The position numbers were made by a program, and so were the translations under genes. A stretch of DNA of 64,000 bases from an uncultured Clostridia bacterium. GTDB taxonomy: Bacteria > Bacillota > Clostridia > Christensenellales > UBA1242. Every line of letters starts with the position of its first letter. Within the stretch, counting starts at the first letter, position 1. The stretch spans positions 55,655-119,654 of the forward strand of contig CALWEH010000003.1 of the NCBI GenBank assembly GCA_944377145.1, given 5' to 3'. A model generated the notes under the pieces. That model was given only the letters and a program-made list of their open reading frames with translations, was not told where the DNA came from and ran no database searches. This document shows, one piece after another, positions 3,379 to 61,052 of this stretch.

Positions 3379-3411
3379 AATTTACTCCTTTAATTATATA
3401 ATTTTTTATAT

Positions 3412-3864
3412 TTAATTACTTAACAATATTTCTATTCTGCCACTCGATATATCTATAACTGCTTGTACTGCTTTTAATATATTCATTTTAACGCCTGTAT
3501 TTTCCACCCCCTTTGCCACTATAATCACCCCTTTGATAGTTGGGAACTCTGTAGTTTCTATCACATCGTCTTTAACATTCGTTCCACTCATATCTAAAGT
3601 AATCATAACATTTACATCACTTGCTCCTTGGATTTGAGATAATATTTGCTCAAGTTTTGTTTCCATATTTTCTACATAACTTGTAATAGATGATGTTGCT
3701 TCTGTTGAGTTTGAATAATTATCTTTTTCCTTATCTCCTGTAGATGAGAAGAATATTAATATAAGTATTATTGCAAATATTATAGTTATGTATATTTCTA
3801 TATGCTTTATATTCTTAAGTTTTTCTACCCATTTAAATTTGCTCTTTTGAGGTTTTTCACTCAC
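3412..3864 (-). CDS. spoIIIAG: stage III sporulation protein AG
   Basis: 150 aa with an N-terminal TM segment and the C-terminal motif P.IKGVIIVAKGVEN..VK..I..AV..V. Position in the spoIIIA operon fits. Confidence 0.75.
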   Translation of the reverse strand: MSEKPQKSKFKWVEKLKNIKHIEIYITIIFAIILILIFFSSTGDKEKDNYSNSTEATSSITSYVENMETKLEQILSQIQGASDVNVMITLDMSGTNVKDDVIETTEFPTIKGVIIVAKGVENTGVKMNILKAVQAVIDISSGRIEILLSN

Positions 3865-4339
3865 AAAATACTATCACCTCCTCAGTTACAGCTATATGGC
3901 TCATAACAACTTGTCTAATATATACATATTTATTTATATTCACAGTATTTTGATTAATGACTAAATTTTGCAAATCCACCAAAACTTGTGTTATTTTTAC
4001 ATTATCCGCCTCCATTTCAAACTGTATATCTATCTTAACATTGGTGTATCCGTTTGTATTTAATTCTTCTATAATAATTTGTTCAATTTCACCTAATTTA
4101 GAGTTATTTATATTGTATAATAATTTTTCATTTAATTGTATATCTGTTTTAGTAAAATAATCGCTTAATTTATAATCACTCTTAATCCAAGTTAATATTG
4201 GAGAAAGTATTACAAACATTACAAATATAGAAAATATTCCTGATATATACTTAGATGTAGTTCCTGACGGTAATATCACTTCTATTAACACACCTAATAA
4301 TACAATCCCTAATAATGTTAACAAATATCCACTCATCAT
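3857..4339 (-). CDS. spoIIIAF: stage III sporulation protein AF
   Basis: 160 aa with two N-terminal TM helices (LIEVILPSG..SKYI..IFS). Overlaps spoIIIAG by 8 nt and sits in the expected operon position. Confidence 0.7.
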   Translation of the reverse strand: MMSGYLLTLLGIVLLGVLIEVILPSGTTSKYISGIFSIFVMFVILSPILTWIKSDYKLSDYFTKTDIQLNEKLLYNINNSKLGEIEQIIIEELNTNGYTNVKIDIQFEMEADNVKITQVLVDLQNLVINQNTVNINKYVYIRQVVMSHIAVTEEVIVFCE

Positions 4340-4345
4340 TCCTCC

Positions 4346-5566
4346 TTACACCACATTAGCTGACGCCATACACAATCCTATAGATAAAAAGTACATAAAT
4401 CCAACTACTATAATACATGTAGATAGCATTGTAATAGTTTTAGATGTACTATGCAAGAAGTTTGTAATTCTACCATTATTTAATGGTTGTAATATTGCAC
4501 TCACTGCTTTTAACATCAAACTAAATATTATAATTTCTAATATTGGAGAAAGAATAGATGAAATTATTAATAATATTCCCACCAAACCTATTGAATTTTT
4601 AATTAAAACTCCACTTGCAAGAATTAAATCCATTCCTTGAGATAAATATCCTCCCATAACAGGAACATAACTGCTAATAGTGAATTTTGCAGTTCTTAAT
4701 GAAACTGAATCAAAAGCCCCTGCTGATATTCCTTGAATAGATATTACTGCAAAAAATATTGTAAATGTAACTCCTATAATCCATTTAAATAAACTATTTA
4801 AAAAAGAATTAAACTTGTCCAATTTAACATTGTTAGATAAATGCCCTATAATATTAAGTACAAAAGTAAAAATAAATATTGGCATAACTACTTTTAATAT
4901 TATTATGCTAATAATATTGCTCATAATAGCCAAAACAGGTTGAAATACTCCTACACTTGAAACAGAGCCTATTCCTACCATGAGAGTTAGTATAATGGGA
5001 AATAAAATATTTATTTGATTTTCCATTATACCTAAAGTGTCTGAGGTGCTGTTTATAAGCCTTTTTATGCTAGTTGCCATAACTACAACTATCAAGCAAA
5101 AACATACAAAATGAACAATATCTGCTGTTGATTTTTCAGCAAATTTACTCTTTATTTGCCCTAACAGGCTAGCTATTACCCCTATCCCAACAATTAAAGC
5201 AAACATAGGCACATATTGAATTATTAATTGCATTATTACTTGAAATATAATTTCAATCAGCATTGAATAATCTACTGCTTGCTCTCCGTTTATAACACTC
5301 TGCACTTTATCTTTTACATTATTTAATGAAAACATTTTTACTTGATTTTCATCAAAGTTACTAACTGCTTCTTCAAGAGGAGTAAAATCTATATCATACA
5401 ATAAATCTTCAACATTTGAGCCTAATTCTTCACTCATGCTAACTATGCTAGTGGTAGCACAATATGTATATGTTGGTTGAACAATAAGTGCAAAAAATGA
5501 AATTATTATAACTAATAAAATGCAAGTACGCTTAACATACTCTGGACGATTTCTTAATTTTATCAT
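4346..5566 (-). CDS. spoIIIAE: stage III sporulation protein AE (polytopic membrane protein)
   Basis: 406 aa with a signal-like N-terminus and many TM helices. Size and order match SpoIIIAE. Confidence 0.85.
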   Translation of the reverse strand: MIKLRNRPEYVKRTCILLVIIISFFALIVQPTYTYCATTSIVSMSEELGSNVEDLLYDIDFTPLEEAVSNFDENQVKMFSLNNVKDKVQSVINGEQAVDYSMLIEIIFQVIMQLIIQYVPMFALIVGIGVIASLLGQIKSKFAEKSTADIVHFVCFCLIVVVMATSIKRLINSTSDTLGIMENQINILFPIILTLMVGIGSVSSVGVFQPVLAIMSNIISIIILKVVMPIFIFTFVLNIIGHLSNNVKLDKFNSFLNSLFKWIIGVTFTIFFAVISIQGISAGAFDSVSLRTAKFTISSYVPVMGGYLSQGMDLILASGVLIKNSIGLVGILLIISSILSPILEIIIFSLMLKAVSAILQPLNNGRITNFLHSTSKTITMLSTCIIVVGFMYFLSIGLCMASANVV

Positions 5567-5946
5567 AATAGCTCCATTACAATGTCAAGCACACTGTTTA
5601 TAATAGGCAAAGCAATTATTAAAATAGAAATTTTACCACAAAATAAAATTTTGTCTGCAATACTATTGCAGCCGCCATCTATACATAAATTTGCTCCAAA
5701 TTCGCATAAATATCCAATTCCAATTATTTTTAATACAGGAACAAAAAGTGAATTACTTACGCCTGTTTTATTAAATATGCCCATGAAATTGCCAAACACA
5801 TTCTGTAGTAATTGTATTGAAAAAATAATTATAATTATACAGCCGGCAATATTTATAAGCATAGCAATTTCAGGTTTAATTTGACGAACTATAATACTTG
5901 CTATTACTGTAATAAGTCCGGCAATAACCACTTTTACCACATCCAT
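5563..5946 (-). CDS. spoIIIAD: stage III sporulation protein AD
   Basis: 127 aa polytopic membrane protein that overlaps the spoIIIAE start by 4 nt. Order and size fit SpoIIIAD. Confidence 0.8.
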   Translation of the reverse strand: MDVVKVVIAGLITVIASIIVRQIKPEIAMLINIAGCIIIIIFSIQLLQNVFGNFMGIFNKTGVSNSLFVPVLKIIGIGYLCEFGANLCIDGGCNSIADKILFCGKISILIIALPIINSVLDIVMELL

Positions 5947-5954
5947 ATATTACC

Positions 5955-6149
5955 TCAAAATGAAAATAAATTTTTAACAGTATCTAATAGATTTTGCACT
6001 AAATCTAATACCATTAATAAACAAATTATAAGTCCAGCTAATGTGGTTACAGATGCAATTTCTTCTTTACCTAAATGTTTTAGTATTTGATTGACTATAG
6101 CAGTTATAAGCCCTATACCCGCAATTTTAAATATAATATCTACTGACAC
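5955..6149 (-). CDS. spoIIIAC: stage III sporulation protein AC
   Basis: 64 aa with two TM helices (IFKIAGIGL...LAGL). Order and size fit SpoIIIAC. Confidence 0.8.
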   Translation of the reverse strand: MSVDIIFKIAGIGLITAIVNQILKHLGKEEIASVTTLAGLIICLLMVLDLVQNLLDTVKNLFSF

Positions 6150-6175
6150 TTTTTTCTCCTTAATTTTTATATCTT

Positions 6176-6658
6176 TTAAATAAATAATATAGCAAGTCCA
6201 ATAGCAAATAAAAATGACAATTTAGTAATAAGAGGACAATATTTTTCTTTTTCATTTAAAGTCTTTGTTATTTTATCTTTTAAATACATGTCATAAGCTT
6301 CTAATTGCTTTATTTCTCCAGCTGTATCATGCTTGCCTAAAGAGTGAAGCATTTTAGCGATATACTCTTCTTCAGCATCATCTAAAATATGTACAAAACT
6401 TAAATCTAGGTTTGTTCCTTCTTCTAAATATTGTAAATAAGCTGTATATATGTCTTTGTTAGTTTTCTTTAAATTGGTTTGATTTAATATCTCTTTTATC
6501 TTTTGTTTTTGAAATCCTAAATTTAATCGCATTTGCCTAAAAAATTCGCTTAAAGATTCAAATAATAAATACCTATCTTTATATTGTTTACAAACCCCTT
6601 GAGCAACAAGCATTATGACACATATTAAACATATCATTAAAATATATTTCATAATCAC
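6176..6658 (-). CDS. spoIIIAB: stage III sporulation protein AB
   Basis: 160 aa with TM helices at both N- and C-termini and a helical cytoplasmic core. Overlaps the spoIIIAA stop by 4 nt. Confidence 0.7.
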   Translation of the reverse strand: MIMKYILMICLICVIMLVAQGVCKQYKDRYLLFESLSEFFRQMRLNLGFQKQKIKEILNQTNLKKTNKDIYTAYLQYLEEGTNLDLSFVHILDDAEEEYIAKMLHSLGKHDTAGEIKQLEAYDMYLKDKITKTLNEKEKYCPLITKLSFLFAIGLAILFI

Positions 6659-7569
6659 CTACAATACATACATTGAAGCTTTGCATCATATATACCTGTT
6701 AAAGTTCCTGGACCTTCTTGATCTCCTAAAACAATATATCTATCAAATATTTTATTTGAAGTAATAAAATCAAATCCTCTTTTTGCTTTTAATTGCGTTA
6801 TACTATCACTATGAATAGTTGCCAATACTTTAACTCCTGAATTTGTAGCATCAATTATACTTTGAATATCTTTATCTACATCTATTTCATCTGTAACAAA
6901 TATATCAGGCTTCATTGTTCTCAATCCATGCTTAAAAGCAAATTCTTTGCTACAATTTGAATAAATATCAGCAAAGTTTCCCAAAGGTATTTCTGCAACT
7001 CCATTATATACTGAAGCTATTTCATTCCTTTCATCTGCTACTAATACATTATAACAATAGTTTTGATTAGATAATTGATATATCACATCTCTAATAAAGG
7101 TGGTTTTCCCTGCACCTGCAGGTGAAATTACTAATGTATTTAAAAACTCTTTATCCATCATATAATCTAAAGCTAATAAGCTACAACCCTTAATATTGTG
7201 AGGAATTCGAATATTTGCTGATTGAAAATTTTTAATAGTAACCACTTCATTATCGTTGTATACAACTTCCCCACATATTCCTACTCTCACTCCCTTAGGT
7301 AATGTTACAAAACCTTGTTTTAATTGGTCGTTTACAGCATATACAGCATTATCACATAATTTATATACAAATTCTTGCATCATTTCGTATGTACAAATAA
7401 TTGCATGTGAATAGTCACAAAATCCTTTTTCTCCTACAAAATATTTTTTATTTTTAATACATACTATTAGCGGGCAATTCACTCTTAGCCTAATTTCATT
7501 TATATCAGCATAATTTATATATCTTGCTATTGAATTATATATAACTTCTGGTAAATATTTTCTTAACAT
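6655..7569 (-). CDS. spoIIIAA: stage III sporulation protein AA (secretion-type ATPase)
   Basis: 304 aa with Walker A SPAGAGKTT and Walker B IFVTDEI. First gene of the operon, with an AGGAG RBS 6 nt upstream. Confidence 0.85.
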   Translation of the reverse strand: MLRKYLPEVIYNSIARYINYADINEIRLRVNCPLIVCIKNKKYFVGEKGFCDYSHAIICTYEMMQEFVYKLCDNAVYAVNDQLKQGFVTLPKGVRVGICGEVVYNDNEVVTIKNFQSANIRIPHNIKGCSLLALDYMMDKEFLNTLVISPAGAGKTTFIRDVIYQLSNQNYCYNVLVADERNEIASVYNGVAEIPLGNFADIYSNCSKEFAFKHGLRTMKPDIFVTDEIDVDKDIQSIIDATNSGVKVLATIHSDSITQLKAKRGFDFITSNKIFDRYIVLGDQEGPGTLTGIYDAKLQCMYCR

Positions 7570-7648
7570 ACTATAGCTCCTATATAAAAAGTTTTAATAA
7601 AAACTCTTTTACATATTGATATAACTTTATAGCTAATATTAGAACAGA

Positions 7649-44255: not shown

Positions 44256-44810
44256 CTAATATTTTATATTTTTAATTTTTTCTTCAATAGATTTATAAGT
44301 TTGCATAAAAATTTCTTTTTCTTGTTTTATTTCCATTTTCAAGTTTTTATAATGCCCTTTTATTTCATCTATTTTATTTAAAATAGCTCTAATAAGCTTT
44401 ACTTGTTGCTTATAGCCTTTAATAATTGATGCACTAATTCCATCATATTTTAAAGCTTTATAGGTTTGGCAACACAAATTCACTTCATGTTTATATGTTT
44501 TTCTGCAATTTTCACAATCGTCCATACAATGGTCAACTTGGTTGATTAGTTCTTCATAGTGAGTTTTTAATTCATTAATTGCATTTACGCATTTAGTTAA
44601 TCTTGTTTTTACAGGTTTTTTAGAGGCTTGCAACTGTAATACTTCATCTTGATAATCTAACAACTGAGTATACAAAGAACCCACTTCCAATTTAATAGAT
44701 TTAGTTTGTTCAAGGCAAGATATAAAAAGATTATATGTTGCTCTTAATTTATTTCTACAATCATCTAATAACTTTAATAATTTAAAGAACTTCTCTTGAT
44801 TTTTATCCAT
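44256..44810 (-). CDS. hypothetical helical, cysteine-rich protein
   Basis: 184 aa, strongly helical/coiled-coil-like, with 9 Cys including HCMDDCENC and LCC clusters. No family recognised. Packed tightly between yebC and ruvC (20- and 9-nt gaps). Confidence 0.5.
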   Translation of the reverse strand: MDKNQEKFFKLLKLLDDCRNKLRATYNLFISCLEQTKSIKLEVGSLYTQLLDYQDEVLQLQASKKPVKTRLTKCVNAINELKTHYEELINQVDHCMDDCENCRKTYKHEVNLCCQTYKALKYDGISASIIKGYKQQVKLIRAILNKIDEIKGHYKNLKMEIKQEKEIFMQTYKSIEEKIKNIKY

Positions 44811-45549: not shown

Positions 45550-46281
45550 TTATTTTTCTCCTTTAAATATTTCAAACATTATAATACTGCCAGCAATGCT
45601 AGCATTCAAACTTTCTATTTTACCAGACATTGGTAAAGTTATGGTTTTATCGCAAGCATCTATTAGTTGCTTACTCACTCCATTCCCTTCATTACCTATT
45701 ATAACACCAATACGCTTAGAAATCAAATGAATTTCACTCAAATCCTTTCCATTTAATATAGCTGATAATAATATATCGCAAATATTCTTTTTATTTGCAA
45801 TTAATTCATCTCTACTAATTATATGAGGTTTAATTTTAAATATAGCCCCCATACTAGCTCTTACTATTTTTTCACTATATATGTCTGGACAATCTATAAA
45901 ATAAATATCTTCAAAGTTAAAAGCTATTGCACTTCGAATTAAAGTGCCTACATTCCCAGGGTCTTGCAAGCCATCTAATATTAAACTATTGCCTAATGGA
46001 AAAGAATTGGTATTAGTTGGAATTTCGCAAACGCAAATAATATCTTGAGCAGTTTCTACAGTGGATATGCTTTCTAATATTTTACCATCTACTATGCACA
46101 CATTAGGAAAATCGTTATATTTAAATTCATTACTAGTAAGGGTATATTTAATAGTATAACTAGAATTTAAAGCCTCTTCGCAAAGCTTACTACCTTCTAC
46201 TAAAAATAACCCTTCGCTTCTGCGATATTTTTTATTTTTTAATTTTTTTATTAATTTAATATCTAAATTTGTTAATTTCAT
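45550..46281 (-). CDS. TrmH/SpoU family RNA 2'-O-methyltransferase
   Basis: 243 aa with SPOUT motifs: DG.QDPGNVGT.IRSA.AF, IGNEGNGVS, ESLNASIAGSI. Confidence 0.85.
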   Translation of the reverse strand: MKLTNLDIKLIKKLKNKKYRRSEGLFLVEGSKLCEEALNSSYTIKYTLTSNEFKYNDFPNVCIVDGKILESISTVETAQDIICVCEIPTNTNSFPLGNSLILDGLQDPGNVGTLIRSAIAFNFEDIYFIDCPDIYSEKIVRASMGAIFKIKPHIISRDELIANKKNICDILLSAILNGKDLSEIHLISKRIGVIIGNEGNGVSKQLIDACDKTITLPMSGKIESLNASIAGSIIMFEIFKGEK

Positions 46282-46329
46282 ATTAACATTATAATATCTT
46301 TAAATTTAATTAGTCAACTAGTTGAATAA

Positions 46330-46362
46330 TATAAAAATAAAAACACTTCAATATAAGTGCTT
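46330..46362 (-). terminator. weak rho-independent terminator after the ytxH-like gene
   Basis: Minus strand: AGCACTT-ATATTG-AAGTGTT (7 bp including one G-U pair) followed by TTTTATTTTTAT. Confidence 0.45.
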
Positions 46363-46377
46363 TTATTTTAATTTAAT

Positions 46378-46569
46378 TTATTTTTTGCTTGAACTAGATT
46401 TTTTACTAGGTTGTATAATCTTTTCTTCAATAAAGTCTTTACCTTCTTCTATTTTTTGATTAACAGCTTTTTTACCTTTTTCAACTGCATTAGATAAATC
46501 CTTATTTGATTTTACCATGATAGCTCCAACCACAAAACCAATACCCATTCCCATTAAAAATTCTTTCAT
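46378..46569 (-). CDS. YtxH-like small membrane-anchored protein
   Basis: 63 aa with an N-terminal glycine-zipper TM segment (GMGIGFVVGAIM), then a helical K/E-rich segment and a Ser/Lys tail. Confidence 0.5.
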   Translation of the reverse strand: MKEFLMGMGIGFVVGAIMVKSNKDLSNAVEKGKKAVNQKIEEGKDFIEEKIIQPSKKSSSSKK

Positions 46570-46633
46570 ACTGCCTCCAATATTAGTTTTTGTATAAATT
46601 TGTCAATTATTCATTTAAAATAATTTTAAATGC

Positions 46634-46662
46634 AAAAAAATATTATCGCATTGCGATAATAT
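46634..46662 (-). terminator. rho-independent terminator after the IscU-like/AT-hook gene
   Basis: Minus strand: ATATTATCGC-AAT-GCGATAATAT (10-bp stem) followed by 7 T, starting 6 nt after the stop. Confidence 0.85.
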
Positions 46663-46667
46663 TTTTA

Positions 46668-48302
46668 CTAGTCATCTAATAAAGCTTTTAATAAATCTTC
46701 TATACCACCTTTAGGAGCCTCATCTTTAATATTTATATCATCATAGTCTTTATCTTCTTCACTATCTACCTCTACTTCTTGATCATCTTCATCTATTTCT
46801 CTAGGTGCAGAAAGTGTAGTGTTTTCTTCTACTTTATTAATATTTACTTCATGCTCAGTTTGCTCATTATTAATTGTTTTAGTCATATTTATATTAATAT
46901 TTGTAGTAGTAACATTTTTTGAAGCAAATACAATATCTTGAGTATTATTCAACATACTAACACTATCATTAGCAGTTAAACTCCTTTTCAAAGAGCTCAC
47001 TGTAGGCATAGGTTCAAGTTTGTTTAATTGAGGATTAGCTATTTCTTCTACAGCCTTTTTAGGTCTTCCTCTGCCTCGTTTTTCTTCATTAACATCTAAC
47101 TCTTGAGAATCAATATTCACTTCATTCTCTAAATTATTTGCTTTATATTCATTAGATGTTTGATGAACATCTTTTCCTGATAAGATATTTCTAATATTGG
47201 ATTTAAATACATCATAATTATCTCCATAATCAGAATAACTTGAGCTAGACATCATTTCATTTACAAAGTTTGTAGCATTAGCTTTAAATGGTTGGCTTTC
47301 ATTAGTTGACAAACTATTAACTTGATTATTTATTGCCACTTCTTCTTTTCTAGGTCTGCCTCTACCTCGCTTTTCTCCAACTTGCACCATTGAATTTTCG
47401 TCTATTATTTTTCTTGGTCTACCTCTTCCTCTCTTCTCTGTTGGTTGAAGCGTATCTTCTGGAGAGACTTCTTTCCTTGGACGCCCTCTTCCTCTTTTTT
47501 CTTTAACAACTATTTCACTCTCGTCCACTATTTTTCTAGGTCTTCCACGCCCTCTTTTTTCTTTCAATTCAACAATCTCATTTTCATCAACAATTTTTCT
47601 TGGTCTACCTCTACCTCGTTTTTCTCCAACTTGCACTATTGAATTTTCGTCTACTATTTTTTTAGGTCTGCCTCTTCCTCTCTTCTCTGTTGGTTGAAGA
47701 TTATCTTCTGGAGAAACTTCTTTTCTTGGACGTCCTCTTCCTCGTTTTTCTCTTGTTAAATTTTCCTCTTCATTTTTAGGATATTTTCTTGGTCTGCCTC
47801 TACGTTCAACTTTAACAGGAGAAATATTAGAGTATATTTCCTTTTCAATTTCTGCATTTAAATCATTTTCTTCATCTTCTTTTTCATCTTGGTCTACAGG
47901 TTTATAATCTATTGGGGTATTTTGTTGTTTAGTTTGGCGTTTTAGATAATTATTATAAGCTTCAGTCATAGCCATTTTAACCATCTCAAACACTTCTAAA
48001 TATTCAGGTAATAATTCATCAAGATTTTCTTTAATAACACTTTCATCTATCTGCATTGCATTTTCAACAGACATATTAATAATATTATCTGTTATTAAAG
48101 ATGTAATAGCTATAGCGTTAGGATTTCCAAATGCTCTAAATTTAGCATCTGTAATAATTCCATTAACAACACGCCAACTAAGCTCTATTACCAAACCGTC
48201 ATTATCATTCCCCACTCTACCTATTGCGTCAGGCTTAATAATACGTCCACTATGTTTTGCATTATAAAATAAATCTAAAATTTTTCTACTACACGCTTTC
48301 AT
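46668..48302 (-). CDS. cysteine-less IscU/NifU-N-like domain fused to nine AT-hook motifs and an acidic tail
   Basis: 544 aa. Residues 1-118 are colinear with IscU (ILD.F.N...G.I...D..G.VGN...G..I.L...V....I.DAKF..FG...AIA) but all three ligand Cys are replaced. Residues 166-320 hold 8 RGRP cores (7 of them EKRGRGRP[RK]K at 20-21 aa spacing). One more core lies at residues 407-416. The C-terminus is acidic. Confidence 0.8.
   Translation of the reverse strand: MKACSRKILDLFYNAKHSGRIIKPDAIGRVGNDNDGLVIELSWRVVNGIITDAKFRAFGNPNAIAITSLITDNIINMSVENAMQIDESVIKENLDELLPEYLEVFEMVKMAMTEAYNNYLKRQTKQQNTPIDYKPVDQDEKEDEENDLNAEIEKEIYSNISPVKVERRGRPRKYPKNEEENLTREKRGRGRPRKEVSPEDNLQPTEKRGRGRPKKIVDENSIVQVGEKRGRGRPRKIVDENEIVELKEKRGRGRPRKIVDESEIVVKEKRGRGRPRKEVSPEDTLQPTEKRGRGRPRKIIDENSMVQVGEKRGRGRPRKEEVAINNQVNSLSTNESQPFKANATNFVNEMMSSSSYSDYGDNYDVFKSNIRNILSGKDVHQTSNEYKANNLENEVNIDSQELDVNEEKRGRGRPKKAVEEIANPQLNKLEPMPTVSSLKRSLTANDSVSMLNNTQDIVFASKNVTTTNININMTKTINNEQTEHEVNINKVEENTTLSAPREIDEDDQEVEVDSEEDKDYDDINIKDEAPKGGIEDLLKALLDD
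47343..47807 (-). repeat. tandem 60-63 bp coding repeats (AT-hook units) with a 249-bp higher-order duplication
   Basis: Units 1-2 (EVSPEDNLQPT / IVDENSIVQVG) recur as units 5-6 (EVSPEDTLQPT / IIDENSMVQVG). At DNA level, the blocks starting near 47362 and 47608 and those near 47420 and 47670 are nearly identical. Confidence 0.85.
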
Positions 48303-49500
48303 TTTTCTTTCTTCCTCTCTTTTGTTTTATACTAGATTTTGAGGAATACGTTGGAGAGAATGAACGTAATTTTTCTACACTTTCTTTAATTATTGCTACC
48401 GCTTTATCCACTTCCTCATATTCATTATTTTTAGAAAAACTAAAACGAATGGTACTTTTAGCTAGATCGTCTGTCATACCCATTGCTTTTAAAACATGAG
48501 AAACTTCTGTGCTATTAGACATACAGGCACTTCCTGTGCTAACATATACACCTTTTAAATCAAGCATCATAAGTAATGCACTACCATCTACTCCAACAAA
48601 AGTTGCACTCACTATTTTTGCTAATTTTTGCTTTGGATAACCATTTATAATAACATCTGGAACCTCTTTTGTTAATTGAGCTACAAAATATTCACTTAAT
48701 GTTTTAATTTTATATTGGTTTTGCTTTAAATCCCTATATGCAATTTCAGCAGCTTTAGCAAAGCCTGTTATTCCTGCCACATTTAAAGTTCCTCCTCGTT
48801 TACCACGCTCTTGATTTCCTCCAAAGTGCAAATTATCTATATTTACTTTATTGCTAACATATAAAGCTCCCACACCTTTAGGCCCATAAATCTTATGAGA
48901 GGATATGCTTAAAGCATCTATACCCATATCAGGACAATCAAATTCCATAGAACCATACAACTGAACTGCATCTGTATGGAAAATCACTCCTTTTTCTTTA
49001 GCTAGTTGAGCAATAGCTTTAATATTTTGTATAGTACCCACTTCATTATTAGCTGACATTATTGATATTAAAATTGTTTGAGGAGTAATAGCTCCAATAA
49101 GCTCTGCAAAATTTACAAACCCATTTTTATCAACATCTAGATAGGTAACTGTAAACCCATTTTTTTCTAAGAATTCACAAGCATCAAGCACTGAGTGATG
49201 TTCAAACTTAGATGTTATAATATGGTTTCCTTTATTTTTATTTGCCATAGCAATGCCAATAATAGCCCAATTATTAGACTCTGTTCCGCCTGATGTAAAA
49301 TATATTTCATTAGGACTAACATTAAGAGTTTTAGCAATAGTATCTCTAGCTTCATCAATATATTTATTAGCATCACGACCAACGCCATGCACTGAGTTGC
49401 TATTACCATAACATTCTGTCATAACAGGCATCATAGCCTGCAATACTTCTGCACTCATTTTAGTGGTAGAAGCGTTATCAAAATAGATTTCAGCTTTCAT
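48289..49500 (-). CDS. nifS: class V cysteine desulfurase (NifS/IscS-like)
   Basis: YFDNASTT, the PLP lysine in SSHKIYGPKG and the active-site Cys in STGSACMS. It has a basic C-terminal tail (KQKRGRKKNESV). Start at ATG 49500 after GGAG; the track ORF starts at a GTG inside the promoter. Confidence 0.9.
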   Translation of the reverse strand: MKAEIYFDNASTTKMSAEVLQAMMPVMTECYGNSNSVHGVGRDANKYIDEARDTIAKTLNVSPNEIYFTSGGTESNNWAIIGIAMANKNKGNHIITSKFEHHSVLDACEFLEKNGFTVTYLDVDKNGFVNFAELIGAITPQTILISIMSANNEVGTIQNIKAIAQLAKEKGVIFHTDAVQLYGSMEFDCPDMGIDALSISSHKIYGPKGVGALYVSNKVNIDNLHFGGNQERGKRGGTLNVAGITGFAKAAEIAYRDLKQNQYKIKTLSEYFVAQLTKEVPDVIINGYPKQKLAKIVSATFVGVDGSALLMMLDLKGVYVSTGSACMSNSTEVSHVLKAMGMTDDLAKSTIRFSFSKNNEYEEVDKAVAIIKESVEKLRSFSPTYSSKSSIKQKRGRKKNESV

Positions 49501-49518
49501 ATTTATATCTCCATGCTT

Positions 49519-49547
49519 ATTGTACAACACAACAGCTTCTTTGTCAA
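49519..49547 (-). promoter_or_regulatory. sigma-A-type promoter for the nifS / IscU-like operon
   Basis: Minus strand: TTGACA, 17 nt spacer, TACAAT. It is preceded by about 70 nt that are almost pure A (UP-element-like). Confidence 0.65.
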
Positions 49548-49625
49548 TAGTGATTTTTTAATTTTTTTATATTTTTTGACTATTTTTTTATTATTTTATT
49601 TTTATTTTTTTTGTTTTTTTCAATA

Positions 49626-49652
49626 TATAAAAAACACTAGCTATTAGCTAGT
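49626..49652 (-). terminator. probable rho-independent terminator after trxA
   Basis: Minus strand: ACTAGC-TAATA-GCTAGT followed by GTTTTTTAT. The stem is short. Confidence 0.5.
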
Positions 49653-49669
49653 ATTTTTAAACAACATTT

Positions 49670-49975
49670 TTATCTATTTTGATCAATGAATTTTAACACT
49701 TCATCTTTAGTATTAAATCCTACCATTGTATCTACAACTTGACCTTTTTTAAAAATCAATATTGTAGGGATTGAAAATATTTTATATTCTCTTGCAATAT
49801 CTTCACTTTCATCTACATCTACATTATAGAACTCAACATCTTTTAAAATAGTTTCAATTTCTTCCATAATTGGCTTTAACATTCTGCAAGGTGCACACCA
49901 AGTAGCGTAAAAATCCACTACACAAAAATCGCTCTCTTTCACCTTTTTAAATGTTGAACTTGTTAATTTTTCCAT
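49670..49975 (-). CDS. trxA: thioredoxin
   Basis: 101 aa with the active site WCAPC and FSIPT. Confidence 0.93.
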   Translation of the reverse strand: MEKLTSSTFKKVKESDFCVVDFYATWCAPCRMLKPIMEEIETILKDVEFYNVDVDESEDIAREYKIFSIPTILIFKKGQVVDTMVGFNTKDEVLKFIDQNR

Positions 49976-49979
49976 AAAA

Positions 49980-50651
49980 TCACTCCTTTACAATTTCATT
50001 TATTACATAGGATACTATAGTACAAGCCATAGCTACTGGATAATAAGATATACTTCCAACTGGAGTCTTTTTCATTGCAAAATTAGAGGTATATACCACT
50101 TGCAATTTTTTTATGCCATTATCTTTACAATATTTTCTTAATATTTTTGCCAAGGCATCATTTTCAGTTTTAAATATATCTACCACTTTAAATTCAGGAT
50201 TTCCTAAATATCTATTTCCTGCACCCATACTAGATAATAAATTTAAATTTAATTGATTGCATTTATATATTAAATATTGTTTTGCTTTAATATCGTCAAT
50301 ACAATCTATAATCATAGTATATCTTGTTAAATCAATTTTATTATTACAATCAAATTTTTCACACAAACTAATTAAATTTAAATTAGGATTAATATCTAGC
50401 AACTGTTTTTTCAATACATTTACTTTATATTCTCCAATAGTTGAATAAAAGGCTACAAACTGCCTATTTATATTACTTTCAGCCACTTTATCAAAATCCA
50501 TAATAGTCAAATTAGAAACACCTGCCCGCACCAGCATGTGAGCTACTGCTCCACCTACTCCTCCTAGGCCAATAATTAATATATTTGCGTTTAAAATTTT
50601 ATCCATTTGAGTAGGAGTTAATAAAAGTTCTTGTCTTTGTAAAAATTCCAT
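49980..50651 (-). CDS. tcdA: tRNA threonylcarbamoyladenosine dehydratase (ThiF/MoeB E1-like, TcdA family)
   Basis: RQ..L.......L....I.I.GLGGVGG..A..L.R.GV..L...DFD.V..SN.NRQ. Start at ATG 50651, 1 nt after the hslU stop. Confidence 0.8.
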   Translation of the reverse strand: MEFLQRQELLLTPTQMDKILNANILIIGLGGVGGAVAHMLVRAGVSNLTIMDFDKVAESNINRQFVAFYSTIGEYKVNVLKKQLLDINPNLNLISLCEKFDCNNKIDLTRYTMIIDCIDDIKAKQYLIYKCNQLNLNLLSSMGAGNRYLGNPEFKVVDIFKTENDALAKILRKYCKDNGIKKLQVVYTSNFAMKKTPVGSISYYPVAMACTIVSYVINEIVKE

Positions 50652-50652
50652 A

Positions 50653-51957
50653 TTATAACACAAACTTTTTAAAATCATGAGATTTAAATGCTGATGTTAA
50701 AGTGCTTTCTACAAATACTTTATCTATTACAACTTCTACTAAAGGATTTTCATTGCTAGCATTAAATGAAATGTCTTCTAATAAATTTTCTAAAATAGTT
50801 TGCAAACGTCTAGCTCCAAGATTTTCTTGAGTTTCATTTTCAAGTTTAGCAAGCTCTCCAATTTTTTCTATAGCGTCATCTGTAAATTTTAAATCTATAT
50901 TATCTACTTTTAGCATTTGTTCATACTGATTAATTAGCCCTGTTTGTAATTTTAATATTTTAACAAAATCATCTTTATCCAAATTATCTAATTCCACTAT
51001 AATTGGGAAACGACCTTGCAATTCAGGAATTAAATCACTTACACTTGCAATATGAAATGCTCCTGCAGCTATAAATAATATATGGTCTGTATGAATTGAG
51101 CCATATTTAGTATTAACCACACAACCTTCTACTATTGGTAAAATATCTCGTTGAACACCCTCTCTGGATACATCTTGACCTTGAACTTTTTTCGCAGCAA
51201 TTTTATCTATCTCATCTATAAATATAATACCCTCTTGTTCAGCACGATGAATAGCTTCTTTATTTACATTATCTTGATCAATTAATCTATCACATTCTTC
51301 TTCTATTAATATTTCTCTAGCACGCTCAACACTCATTTTTTTAGTTTTGCGATTACCTTTAAACACTCCACCTACAATTTGACCAATATTAATTTCACCT
51401 GCTCCACCTTCTAAAATATTAAAAGGTTTAGGCTGTTCGTTAACTTCAACTTCAATTATATCTTTATCAAACAATCCTCCATCAAAACTAGCTTCAAATT
51501 GATTTTTAAAAGTTTCAGTATCCATTTCTTCTGGCTTTAATTGTTTTTTTAGAGGGTATAAAATGTCTTTAATTTTTTTATTTACTAAATGTAAAGCTTT
51601 ATCACGAACTTTTTGTACTTGTTCACTTTTTACCACACGAATACTAGCTTCCACAAGATCTCGCACCATGCTTTCAACATCACGACCAACATAACCTACT
51701 TCTGTATATTTAGTAGCTTCTACTTTTACAAAAGGCGCATTAACAAGCTTAGCTAGCCTTCTTGCTATTTCTGTTTTACCTACCCCTGTAGGACCTTTTA
51801 ATATAATGTTTTTTGGCATTATTTCATCACTTACAGATTTAGGTAATTGACTACGCCTATATCTATTTCTAAGAGCGATTGATACTGCACGTTTAGCTTT
51901 ATATTGCCCTACAATATATTCATCTAATTTATTAACAATTTCTTTACAAGTCATCAT
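50653..51957 (-). CDS. hslU: ATP-dependent protease ATPase subunit HslU (ClpY)
   Basis: L..YIVGQ..AK.AV..ALRNR.RR, GPTGVGKTEIARRLA, IIFIDEIDKI. Start at ATG 51957 after GAGGAGA, directly after the hslV stop. Confidence 0.95.
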   Translation of the reverse strand: MMTCKEIVNKLDEYIVGQYKAKRAVSIALRNRYRRSQLPKSVSDEIMPKNIILKGPTGVGKTEIARRLAKLVNAPFVKVEATKYTEVGYVGRDVESMVRDLVEASIRVVKSEQVQKVRDKALHLVNKKIKDILYPLKKQLKPEEMDTETFKNQFEASFDGGLFDKDIIEVEVNEQPKPFNILEGGAGEINIGQIVGGVFKGNRKTKKMSVERAREILIEEECDRLIDQDNVNKEAIHRAEQEGIIFIDEIDKIAAKKVQGQDVSREGVQRDILPIVEGCVVNTKYGSIHTDHILFIAAGAFHIASVSDLIPELQGRFPIIVELDNLDKDDFVKILKLQTGLINQYEQMLKVDNIDLKFTDDAIEKIGELAKLENETQENLGARRLQTILENLLEDISFNASNENPLVEVVIDKVFVESTLTSAFKSHDFKKFVL

Positions 51958-59579: not shown

Positions 59580-61052
59580 TTATAATAATATGCAAATTAT
59601 TCCGCCTTTACCTTCGTTAACAATTCTAGACAAGGTTCTTCTTAATTTATTTTGTAAAGGTTTTGGCATAGCTGTTAATTTGTTGTTTAAATCTTCATTT
59701 ACTAAGCTTTCTAAACTTTTACCAAACATATTTGTTTGCCATATACCTTTAGGATTATTTTCAAATTCTTTTAAAAGATATTGTGCCATTTCTTCACTTT
59801 GTTGAACTCCTCCCATAATAGGGCTAACTTCTGTTTGGACTTCTACTTTCATTATATGTAAACTTGGAGCATTAGCTTTTAATTTAACTCCACAACGGCT
59901 TCCTTGTTTTACAATTTCAGGTTCCATCAATTCCATTTCATCTATACTAGGAACTACTATACCATACCCATCTTGTTCTACTTGAGCTAAAGCATCTTTA
60001 ATTTTATCGTAAGCTGTTTTTGCTTTAGTTAAATCTTTTAAACAGCTTATTAATTCAAAATCACTATTAATATCGCACCCACATTGTATACTTAGAACTT
60101 TATAAAACAAATTCTCTTTTGCTACCACATCATATACAATTTCCCCTTGACCCATTTGAATATTGCTAGATAATATTGGTTCAAAATTTTCGCTATTTTC
60201 AAATAAAGCCACATTAGCATCTCCCACAGTTTGAACATCTTGCATGCTATTCATAACAGTTTCTACTATTTCATTTATAATTTGATGATTTTTAGGCAAA
60301 GCTCTTAAATAATTTGGAATTTTTACACTTACCACTTCAAGTGGAAATTGAGTTAACACATTACTCATTATATTATCAATATCTCCTTTAGATAAATTAT
60401 ACACATCACAACACACTACAGGCACTTTATATTGCACAGATAGAGTTTGCTTTAACTTTTGCGTTTTTTCACTTTTCACATTTGCAGAGTTTAATACTAT
60501 CACAAAAGGTTTTTTACTATGTTTTAATTCTTTCACTAATTTAGATTCAACTTTAGCATAACTATCTCTAGGGATATTGCCAAAACTACCATCTGAAGTC
60601 ATAAGAATTGCAATATTTGAATGTTCGCTAATCACTCGTTTTGTTCCTAAGGTAGCAGCTTGAGCAAATGGCATTTTTTCTTTACTCCAAGGAGTTTCTA
60701 CAAGACGAGGCTGATTATTCTCCTCATAGCCACTAGCTCCATCTACTAAATATCCTACACAGTCTATCATTCTTAATTTAAAAGAAATATTGTCAATATT
60801 TACTTCCACAGGTTCACTAGGAACAAATTGAGGTTTAGTAGTCATAATCATTGTTCCGTCACCTGCTTGAGGCAATTCATCTTCTGTACGTGACAAATCG
60901 TACTTATTTGTAATATTTGGCAAAACAAAATTGCGCATACACTTACTAATAAATGTTGACTTCCCGCACCTAACAGGACCTACCACACCTATATACACAG
61001 CACCATTTGAACGTTGGGCAATATCTTTGTATATGCCGAATTCAAAATCCAT
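59580..61052 (-). CDS. spoIVA: stage IV sporulation protein A (spore coat basement-layer ATPase)
   Basis: 490 aa: IY.DIA.RS.G.VYIGVVGPVR.GKSTFI with Walker A. The length and conserved C-terminus (GKGGIICIL) are typical of SpoIVA. Confidence 0.93.
   Translation of the reverse strand: MDFEFGIYKDIAQRSNGAVYIGVVGPVRCGKSTFISKCMRNFVLPNITNKYDLSRTEDELPQAGDGTMIMTTKPQFVPSEPVEVNIDNISFKLRMIDCVGYLVDGASGYEENNQPRLVETPWSKEKMPFAQAATLGTKRVISEHSNIAILMTSDGSFGNIPRDSYAKVESKLVKELKHSKKPFVIVLNSANVKSEKTQKLKQTLSVQYKVPVVCCDVYNLSKGDIDNIMSNVLTQFPLEVVSVKIPNYLRALPKNHQIINEIVETVMNSMQDVQTVGDANVALFENSENFEPILSSNIQMGQGEIVYDVVAKENLFYKVLSIQCGCDINSDFELISCLKDLTKAKTAYDKIKDALAQVEQDGYGIVVPSIDEMELMEPEIVKQGSRCGVKLKANAPSLHIMKVEVQTEVSPIMGGVQQSEEMAQYLLKEFENNPKGIWQTNMFGKSLESLVNEDLNNKLTAMPKPLQNKLRRTLSRIVNEGKGGIICILL

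Follow-up and report, generated by a model that had tools for sequence, protein, structure and literature searches.

We analysed a 64 000-nt stretch of DNA from an uncultured Clostridia bacterium (the window: positions 55 655 to 119 654 of contig CALWEH010000003.1), and describe a two-gene operon in it, nifS-nifU*, that encodes a cysteine desulfurase and a 544-residue protein that we call NifU*. NifU* joins a head with the fold of IscU/NifU, the scaffold of iron-sulfur (Fe-S) cluster assembly, to a tail with nine AT-hooks. All five cluster-ligand positions of the head are substituted, and NifU* cannot be a conventional Fe-S scaffold. We read it as an exapted pseudo-scaffold that would partner NifS and tether the complex to AT-rich DNA, possibly regulating its own operon; this reading is drawn from sequence, and our confidence in it is evenly balanced. 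Coordinates of all features are collected in Table 1.

Head domain

Pfam NifU_N matches residues 5-125 of NifU* with E=7.5e-20 (71.8 bits, cutoff 22). The head was modelled with AlphaFold2 (AF2) from an alignment of 24 sequences, giving a predicted local distance difference test (pLDDT) score of 92.8, and Foldseek matched the model to the IscU structures 7c8m, 4eb5 and 3lvl and to human ISCU2 with template-modelling (TM) scores of 0.82-0.86. A preliminary description of this DNA, made from its letters, had aligned residues 1-118 colinearly with IscU by eye, and both results uphold that alignment.

A search of 5.8 billion proteins gave about 60 that combine NifU_N with AT_hook. They form two clades, distinguished by N termini of the form MK[AST]C... 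(clade 1) and MSC[FY]... (clade 2). The ligand positions were read from an alignment with E. coli IscU, human ISCU2, Methanothrix IscU (PDB 7c8m) and B. subtilis SufU. In E. coli numbering, C37 has become D35 of NifU*, D39 L37, C63 N60, H105 E103 and C106 V104. The preliminary description had claimed that every ligand was replaced, and the claim extends to the family: all five positions are substituted in 58/58 members examined, with D or E at C37, L or T at D39, N or D at C63, E or Y at H105 and a hydrophobic residue at C106.

Scores against curated models point the same way. The nearest NCBIfam model, the clostridial NifU equivalog TIGR03419, gives 73.4 bits against a cutoff of 187.9, TIGR01999 gives 49.5 against 192.4, and the SufU model TIGR01994 gives 25 against 92.5.

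Cys4 is the sole Cys of the whole protein, as the preliminary description had it, and is invariant in all 32 full-length clade-1 sequences. In clade 2 the Cys is found one residue earlier, placed before a retained Tyr or Phe. The N-terminal Cys therefore occupies or abuts the position of the N-terminal Tyr of IscU, and in clade 1 it replaces that Tyr. The Tyr (Y3 in E. coli, Y35 in human) is universally conserved, flexible and far from the active centre; neither desulfurase binding nor persulfide transfer requires it, and it is essential for the Tyr-Tyr contact that dimerizes IscU and for the cluster synthesis that dimerization drives (Freibert et al. 2021, PMC8617193). Ligands, Tyr and scores all place NifU* outside the scaffold class, and the public label 'iron-sulfur cluster assembly scaffold protein' (e.g. 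MBQ7880796.1) is probably a mis-annotation.

The head is under purifying selection. Its ratio of nonsynonymous to synonymous substitution rates (dN/dS) is 0.13-0.25, with synonymous sites near saturation. This ratio and the invariant residues rule out a decaying pseudogene.

AT-hook tail

Pfam AT_hook recognizes eight stretches of the tail (E=3.3e-18), so that both Pfam families to which the preliminary description had pointed are significant. GRP cores lie at residues 169, 190, 211, 232, 253, 273, 294, 315 and 412 (n=9), in agreement with the nine-hook layout and the 20-21-residue spacing given there. In the DNA, the repeats of the array have a period of 63/126 bp and match one another at only 65-68%; the array is therefore old and diverged, and not an artefact of assembly. 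From repeat to repeat the hook core RGRGRPRK hardly changes, in contrast to the diverged spacers and coding DNA. Every full-length family member has hooks, numbering from 4 to 16. In the AF2 model of full-length NifU* the head is confident, while the hook array has pLDDT <50 and is predicted to be disordered. Elsewhere in the window there are no AT-hooks, apart from a degenerate RGRKK in NifS.

Conservation in the tail is not confined to the hooks. Three further motifs were scored across 32 sequences whose overall identity is about 50%. Motif 1 is nearly invariant at Y363, D364, F366, S368, N369, R371 and G376, and AF2 places a helix at 359-375 (pLDDT 71-74). Motif 2 is invariant at R440, S441, L442, I457, F459, A460, S461, K462, N463, V464, T465, T467, N468, N470 and K475; it is predicted to be disordered when taken alone and is unstructured in the full-length model. 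The C-terminal motif is invariant at D527, A529, P530, G533, L537, L538, A540, L541 and L542, with an AF2 helix at 533-543 (pLDDT 75-78). Nearly every full-length member of either clade has it (the clade-2 version is GGSIEDALKALMDD), and it was not found in other AT-hook proteins. Its GG(I/L)xDLLKALL may resemble the N-terminal GLGRGLxALL peptide of ParB, a likeness that we give as a lead. An acidic tract precedes the C terminus in all family members.

A 1.1-kb ENA contig encodes a protein (P0045) in which a transmembrane-like N terminus precedes a segment with 100% identity to NifU* residues ~395-544. We considered whether it might be a second gene sharing the NifU* tail, and treat it as most likely a chimeric contig.

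Arrays of the same EKRGRGRPRK type occur on unrelated proteins in similar metagenomes (P0087, P0088, P0098, P0064-P0113, P0067, P0094). The carriers include the glycogen-branching enzyme GlgB (P0087, P0088, P0098), encoded within a malQ-glgB-glgA-glgP operon (locus L017, 3001-5481), a 2-oxoacid dehydrogenase E1, and a family of ~800-residue proteins with transmembrane and coiled-coil segments that end in ...DIDAYLKEID...KLRRKK (P0064-P0113). AT-rich gut bacteria therefore seem to use AT-hook arrays as a portable module, and the attachment of arrays to enzymes as unrelated as GlgB would fit a portable nucleoid tether.

Coupling to NifS

The product of nifS matches Pfam Aminotran_5 (E=3e-82), the NCBIfam IscS-subfamily model NF002806 (349.8, cutoff 304) and the NifS model TIGR03402 (470 bits). 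It looks functional, keeping the pyridoxal phosphate Lys in SSHKIYGPKG (residues 200-209) and the catalytic Cys loop STGSACMS (residues 321-328). These motifs and the basic KQKRGRKK tail had been noted in the preliminary description, and all were located in the 403-residue protein.

The two genes are closely linked. In the window the end of nifS and the start of nifU* share 14 nt, the overlap reported earlier, as the coordinates of the open reading frames (ORFs) confirm. In related loci nifS lies directly upstream of nifU* (9/9); all clade-1 loci (8/8) keep the 14-nt overlap, and in clade 2 the genes lie 11 nt apart. Among clade-1 loci NifS is ~90% identical and the NifU* head 63-79%. With a dN/dS of ~0.03, NifS is far more constrained than the head.

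NifS itself carries a hook-like tail in both clades. In clade 1 the C terminus reads SPTYSSKST(L/V)KQKRGRKKK, with KQKRGRKKK in 8/8 loci. In clade 2 it reads TGTGKRGRPRKIQQ, which contains GKRGRPRK, a canonical AT-hook core.

A list of the IscS-contacting residues of IscU has been published (Shi et al. 2010, PMC2854127). Five of these positions are invariant in the NifU* family: F12 (E. coli Y11), G36, V38, R56 and F58. The putative NifS-NifU* interface thus appears partly conserved.

The genes neighbouring nifS are housekeeping genes (hslVU, thiF, trx, spoU, yebC, ruvC). A role in DNA phosphorothioation of the DndA type was rejected, as no dnd or ssp partners are adjacent; the DndA model gives NifS 385 against a cutoff of 480.

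Promoter

The gene pair had been described as bracketed by a TTGACA-17-TACAAT promoter and a strong terminator, and both were located. The promoter motif TTGACA...TA(C/A)AAT is kept across all related loci.

Directly upstream of the -35 element lies an array of helically phased A-tracts, within the most A-rich 70-nt stretch of the window, and it is the only run of at least three phased tracts on either strand of the window. The tracts are at fixed distances of -53, -42, -31, -21 and -11 from the -35 element, often also at -73 and -84, giving a spacing of 10-11 bp. All 10 loci whose upstream sequence is long enough, clade 2 included, have a phased array at this place. In 139 kb of related loci there are only three others: upstream of rsmH, at the start of the dcw cluster (L001 13383-13409), in A-rich coding sequence, and in intergenic DNA (L006 2470-2507). 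Phased A-tract arrays are rare, and not exclusive to the nifS promoter. No regulon defined by other phased A- or T-tract arrays was obvious from their locations. Rfam found no regulatory RNA in 46200-50100.

Family

The protein is real. At least 10 contigs, of independent assemblies and different samples, encode an identical 544-residue protein, and this together with the diverged DNA repeats leads us to reject an assembly or frame artefact; the substitutions in the 58 members also rule out such an error. The preliminary description had suggested a survey of relatives for the fusion and its hook copy number, and the figures given above (about 60 proteins, 4-16 hooks) are its outcome.

When 1.84 billion representatives were searched with a HMMER profile, a sharp score gap set the family apart, with members at 184 bits or more and canonical NifU/IscU proteins at 103 bits or less. 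A profile scan of GTDB genomes found members in metagenome-assembled genomes (MAGs) of 'Candidatus Onthoplasma' (Christensenellales, NCBI taxonomy) and of other gut Clostridia; the profile was required, a single-sequence scan of the same genomes giving no match. With tblastn, neither the window nor ~139 kb of flanking DNA from related loci gave a second IscU or SufU. The preliminary description did not recognize the function that it suggested as one already described. We found no description of the family in the searchable literature on IscU/NifU with AT-hooks, on prokaryotic AT-hook nucleoid proteins and on Cys-lacking NifU-like proteins.

Orthologs without hooks

Three proteins without hooks sit at the same hslVU-thiF-trx-nifS-nifU locus, with a nifS overlap of 19 nt. 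P0183 has three ligand Cys (C37, D39, C63, H105 and C106 read C, D, C, Y and C), P0132 two (C, D, S, Y, C) and P0131 one (Y, E, N, Y, C). Their tails are long and disordered, acidic or K-rich; those of P0183 and P0132 are acidic and finish in the short conserved end LFLDID, and the acidic tail of P0131 ends in FAIDYI. All keep the N-terminal Tyr. Their NifS proteins are 56-60% identical to the window NifS, consistent with orthology, and end without a hook in KKGxxCTTKK; among hook-less orthologs in general the NifS end is KKGxxCTTKK or KNKVEL. The first of these ends (loci L015, L018 and L019) places a Cys near the C terminus, where the hook-bearing lineages have the basic hook instead.

Orthologs with three, two and one ligand Cys at one locus identify it as the ancestral nifU position, as the preliminary description had supposed. 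No member of the syntenic series is without a Cys: each has three, two or one ligand Cys or the N-terminal Cys. By this comparison, the cluster site decayed stepwise while the coupling to NifS stayed.

The NifS hook is absent in P0132, P0199, P0183 and P0131, and the A-tract array upstream of nifS is absent in P0132 and P0199, the two hook-less relatives that were read for it. The AT-hooks, the NifS hook and the A-tracts thus occur together in the hook-bearing lineages, and are together absent where checked.

Degenerate ligand sites are fairly common among NifU-like relatives. Fewer than three ligand Cys remain in 44 of the 121 complete top matches, and ligand loss alone is therefore less unique than the preliminary description implied. 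About 10 proteins outside the family have no ligand Cys at all. Examples of ligand-degenerate proteins are P0168, P0171, P0215, P0232, P0237, P0179, P0238, P0199 and P0248. Many have disordered tails with a short conserved end such as LFLDID, DFGFFDD or LSDALKQL, and some have an FC(I/L)DC motif in the C106 region.

Other variants of the domain were seen in the same searches. P0128 and P0130 have transit-peptide-like N termini and three tandem IscU domains, and look eukaryotic; these domains substitute the C37 equivalent (…ASRGG…) and mostly retain C63 and C106. P0154 (579 residues) is a fusion of NifU_N with ThiF, and P0166 one of NifU_N with a pyridine-nucleotide-disulfide oxidoreductase resembling thioredoxin reductase. 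In P0200, NifU_N is interrupted by a LAGLIDADG intein.

Comparison with known systems

With the clostridial NifU/IscU proteins (PF01592, TIGR03419), NifU* shares the fold, the position 3′ of a NifS/IscS gene, the coupling to it and several desulfurase-contact residues. It differs in the replacement of the three Cys, Asp39 and His105, in the change of the N-terminal Tyr to Cys (clade 1), in reading LPEYL for LPPVK, in scoring far below the equivalog cutoff, and in its added 420-residue hook tail.

The tail invites comparison with HMGA (HMG-I/Y), with which it shares multiple RGRP hooks in a disordered region and acidic segments. CarD of Myxococcus xanthus, reportedly a bacterial example of a protein-interaction head fused to an HMGA-like hook domain, has a similar plan. 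Beyond the hook motif there is no homology to either. The CarD head is of the CarD_TRCF type, whereas the Pfam matches of NifU* are NifU_N and AT_hook only, with an IscU-fold head; NifU* has nine hooks (4-16 in the family) in a regular 20-21-residue repeat, against 3-4; and unlike both it is genetically coupled to a hook-bearing cysteine desulfurase.

CsdE, SufE, TusA and Zn-SufU resemble NifU* as small partners with one invariant Cys that are encoded next to a desulfurase, and a TcdA-like E1 neighbour is common to the NifU* locus and E. coli csdA-csdE-tcdA. SufE, CsdE and TusA differ in fold, and the Cys of NifU* is at a flexible N terminus rather than in an active-site pocket. NifU* has neither the Zn ligands nor the insertion of SufU, and its partner is of the NifS/IscS type, not SufS.

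Closest are P0183, P0132 and P0131, which share the locus, the translational coupling to nifS, the loss of ligands and a disordered tail with a short conserved end. They differ in having no AT-hooks, in retaining the Tyr, in having no NifS hook and, for P0132, in having no A-tract array upstream of nifS. Such proteins are themselves undescribed. NifU* would work partly like HMGA/CarD and partly like an IscU-IscS pair, and is a member of neither.

Interpretation

In the reading that we favour, the head, having kept the IscU fold and presumably unable to ligate a cluster, would be the dedicated partner of the co-translated NifS. The HMGA-like tail, with its nine hooks, acidic spacers, acidic tract and three conserved motifs as putative docking sites, would anchor a NifS2-(NifU*)2 complex to AT-rich DNA by way of the minor groove, and NifS would add one hook per subunit. 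Of possible high-affinity sites, the phased A-tract array by the nifS-nifU* promoter is the best candidate; binding there would make the operon autoregulated. Cys4 may act as a persulfide acceptor, or may form a disulfide in place of the Tyr-Tyr dimer contact. A nucleoid-associated or desulfurase-tethering function had been suggested in the preliminary description; the conserved NifS hook, the promoter A-tracts and the joint absence of both in hook-less relatives strengthen that suggestion.

Several points weigh against the pseudo-scaffold reading. Two IscS-contact residues are altered in NifU* (K42 to E40, K103 to Y101), and K103E in E. coli IscU abolishes IscS binding (PMC2854127), so that NifS binding cannot be assumed without co-evolved changes in NifS. 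DNA binding is only predicted, from the identity of the hook motif. AT-hooks can bind RNA too. The nifS array need not be a hook target, as rsmH of L001 is also preceded by a phased array, and phased A-tracts upstream of the -35 element are a known promoter-strengthening feature in Firmicutes. A DNA-bound desulfurase would have no evident task, and no dndBCDE, sspBCD or tRNA-thiolation genes were found among the neighbours of nifS. The DNA-tether model also leaves the three invariant tail motifs unexplained.

A more specific form of the same reading, which we put forward tentatively and think rather unlikely, is that a NifS2-(NifU*)2 particle with ~20 AT-hooks would read or bridge phased A-tracts, those at its own promoter among them, and would link cysteine, sulfur or redox status to nucleoid architecture or to transcription; the link would be persulfidation, or a thioredoxin-reversible disulfide, at the invariant N-terminal Cys that stands in for the dimerization Tyr of IscU.

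Among the alternatives the strongest, although we consider it unlikely, is a sulfur relay. Here the head would be a single-Cys persulfide acceptor for NifS, like CsdE, SufE and TusA, and would donate to the TcdA-like E1 or to other thiolation enzymes, with recycling by thioredoxin; the hooks would concentrate the relay on DNA or tRNA. Such a relay is compatible with DNA tethering. The N-terminal Cys is invariant in both clades though every ligand Cys is gone, each syntenic ortholog keeps at least one Cys, and the NifU_N-ThiF and NifU_N-thioredoxin-reductase-like fusions (P0154, P0166) are of the Rosetta-stone kind. The thiF-trx-nifS-nifU synteny, found in both clades and in the hook-less orthologs, parallels the E. 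coli CsdA-CsdE-TcdA triad, in which the desulfurase CsdA and its single-Cys acceptor CsdE have a functional link to TcdA (PMC4405576); the best solved relatives of the window ThiF-family protein are TcdA structures (4d7a, 4yed, 4rdh; E ~6e-21), ahead of MoeB and ThiF. Against the relay, cyclic N6-threonylcarbamoyladenosine (ct6A) is sulfur-free and the CsdAE-TcdA link is called enigmatic (PMC4405576), and in the window a terminator and a promoter split thiF-trx from nifS-nifU*. The N-terminal residue of IscU, moreover, is far from the active centre and unneeded for persulfide transfer (PMC8617193), and there are other NifU-like relatives lacking all ligand Cys that have no N-terminal Cys.

We think it unlikely too, if only slightly more so, that NifU* is a stand-alone architectural protein or transcription factor of the HMGA/CarD kind, in which a dead IscU head would serve oligomerization or docking and the linkage to nifS would be a historical leftover for co-expression. 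Hooks followed by an acidic tail are the HMGA architecture, CarD provides a precedent in bacteria, further partners are suggested by the three invariant tail motifs, and the Tyr-to-Cys change falls on the dimerization residue of IscU. A leftover would not be expected to keep the 14-nt coupling in 8/8 clade-1 loci despite saturated synonymous divergence, however, and a NifS hook in both clades makes little sense unless NifS is part of the DNA-bound entity.

It is improbable that the tail has no DNA role, the head being an allosteric activator or stabilizer in the IscU site of NifS and the tail a lineage-specific disordered region for condensates or for binding polyanions or RNA. The tail is predicted to be disordered, hook number varies from 4 to 16, and the hook-less orthologs already have long disordered acidic or K-rich tails; against this, the hook core stays near-invariant between repeats while spacers and DNA diverge, and the hooks co-occur with the NifS hook and the A-tract array. 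A residual Fe-S scaffold working through Asp, Glu and Asn ligands, Cys4 and dimerization would fit the conserved D/E at C37, N/D at C63 and E/Y at H105 and the public annotation, but is very improbable with zero ligand Cys remaining, hydrophobic residues at D39 and C106, 73 bits against the 187.9-bit TIGR03419 cutoff and a site that decays stepwise in the syntenic series.

Features of the window

Table 1. Features of the nifS-nifU* operon and its upstream neighbours, in window coordinates
Feature	Position	Strand	Remarks
NifU* ORF (544 aa)	46668..48302	-	IscU/NifU-like head and nine-AT-hook tail
IscU/NifU-like head, aa 1-125	47928..48302	-	no cluster ligand kept; invariant Cys4
Acidic linker, aa 126-164	47811..47927	-	net charge -8; predicted helix 141-158
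Eight-AT-hook array, aa 165-320	47343..47810	-	net charge +22; RRGRPRK, then seven EKRGRGRP(R/K)K, 20-21 aa apart
Tail motif 1 YGDNYDVFKSNIRNILSG, aa 359-376	47175..47228	-	from conservation scan; predicted helix
Ninth (distal) AT-hook NEEKRGRGRPKKA, aa 405-417	47052..47090	-	
Tail motif 2 SLKRSL...QDIVFASKNVTTTNININMTK, aa 437-475	46878..46994	-	also written SLKRSL...IVFASKNVTTTNININ
Acidic tract, aa 498-526	46725..46811	-	net charge -11
C-terminal motif IKDEAPKGGIEDLLKALLDD, aa 523-544	46671..46736	-	predicted amphipathic helix
Intrinsic terminator ending operon	46636..46666	-	14-bp stem, then T-run
nifS	48289..49500	-	403 aa and stop from ATG, as called in public contigs; IscS/NifS-type cysteine desulfurase
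NifS basic hook-like tail KQKRGRKK, aa 392-399	48304..48327	-	
Operon promoter TTGACA-17-TACAAT	49519..49547	-	sigma-70-type; 11/12 consensus matches
A5-A8 tract array	49554..49620	-	directly 5′ of -35; intrinsically curved/UP-like element; candidate multivalent AT-hook target
trx terminator	49630..49658	-	5′ of operon promoter
Thioredoxin gene (WCAPC)	49670..49975	-	context gene; TIGR01068 112 bits, cutoff 96.8
ThiF-family, TcdA-like E1 enzyme gene	49980..50678	-	context gene, separate transcription unit; Pfam ThiF E=2e-35

The genes of the window are nearly all on the minus strand and of housekeeping type. GC content is ~28-30%, and GC skew is uniformly -0.15 to -0.35. The window carries a spoIIIA-like operon (~3400-7570) and spoIVA (59580-61052), from which we take the host to be a spore-former.

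Two small ORFs lie nearby. Just 3′ of nifU*, a 63-residue ORF (46378-46569, minus strand) has an N-terminal hydrophobic helix, a Ser/Lys-rich end and a promoter-like site of its own (46606..46579); Pfam gave no match, and the ORF is not conserved at the corresponding place in locus L001. Between yebC and ruvC, a 184-residue ORF (44256-44810, minus strand) belongs to no Pfam family and has a Cys-rich patch, CMDDCENCRKTYKHEVNLCC.

Significance

Few known proteins are as conserved as IscU, whose Cys ligands and N-terminal Tyr are considered universal. A family that has lost the ligands, and is nonetheless selected and coupled to NifS, suggests that the IscU-desulfurase partnership can serve a role other than cluster assembly. 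The orthologs with three, two, one and zero ligand Cys at one locus are a natural experiment in the passage from scaffold to pseudo-scaffold. The family is also among the clearest bacterial uses of regular, multivalent AT-hook arrays of the eukaryotic style. Its annotation as a scaffold (e.g. MBQ7880796.1) will mislead metabolic reconstruction of gut Clostridia MAGs. If our reading is true, the hooks on both partners, with the matching A-tracts of the promoter, would give the first hint that bacteria tether a sulfur-mobilizing complex to DNA.

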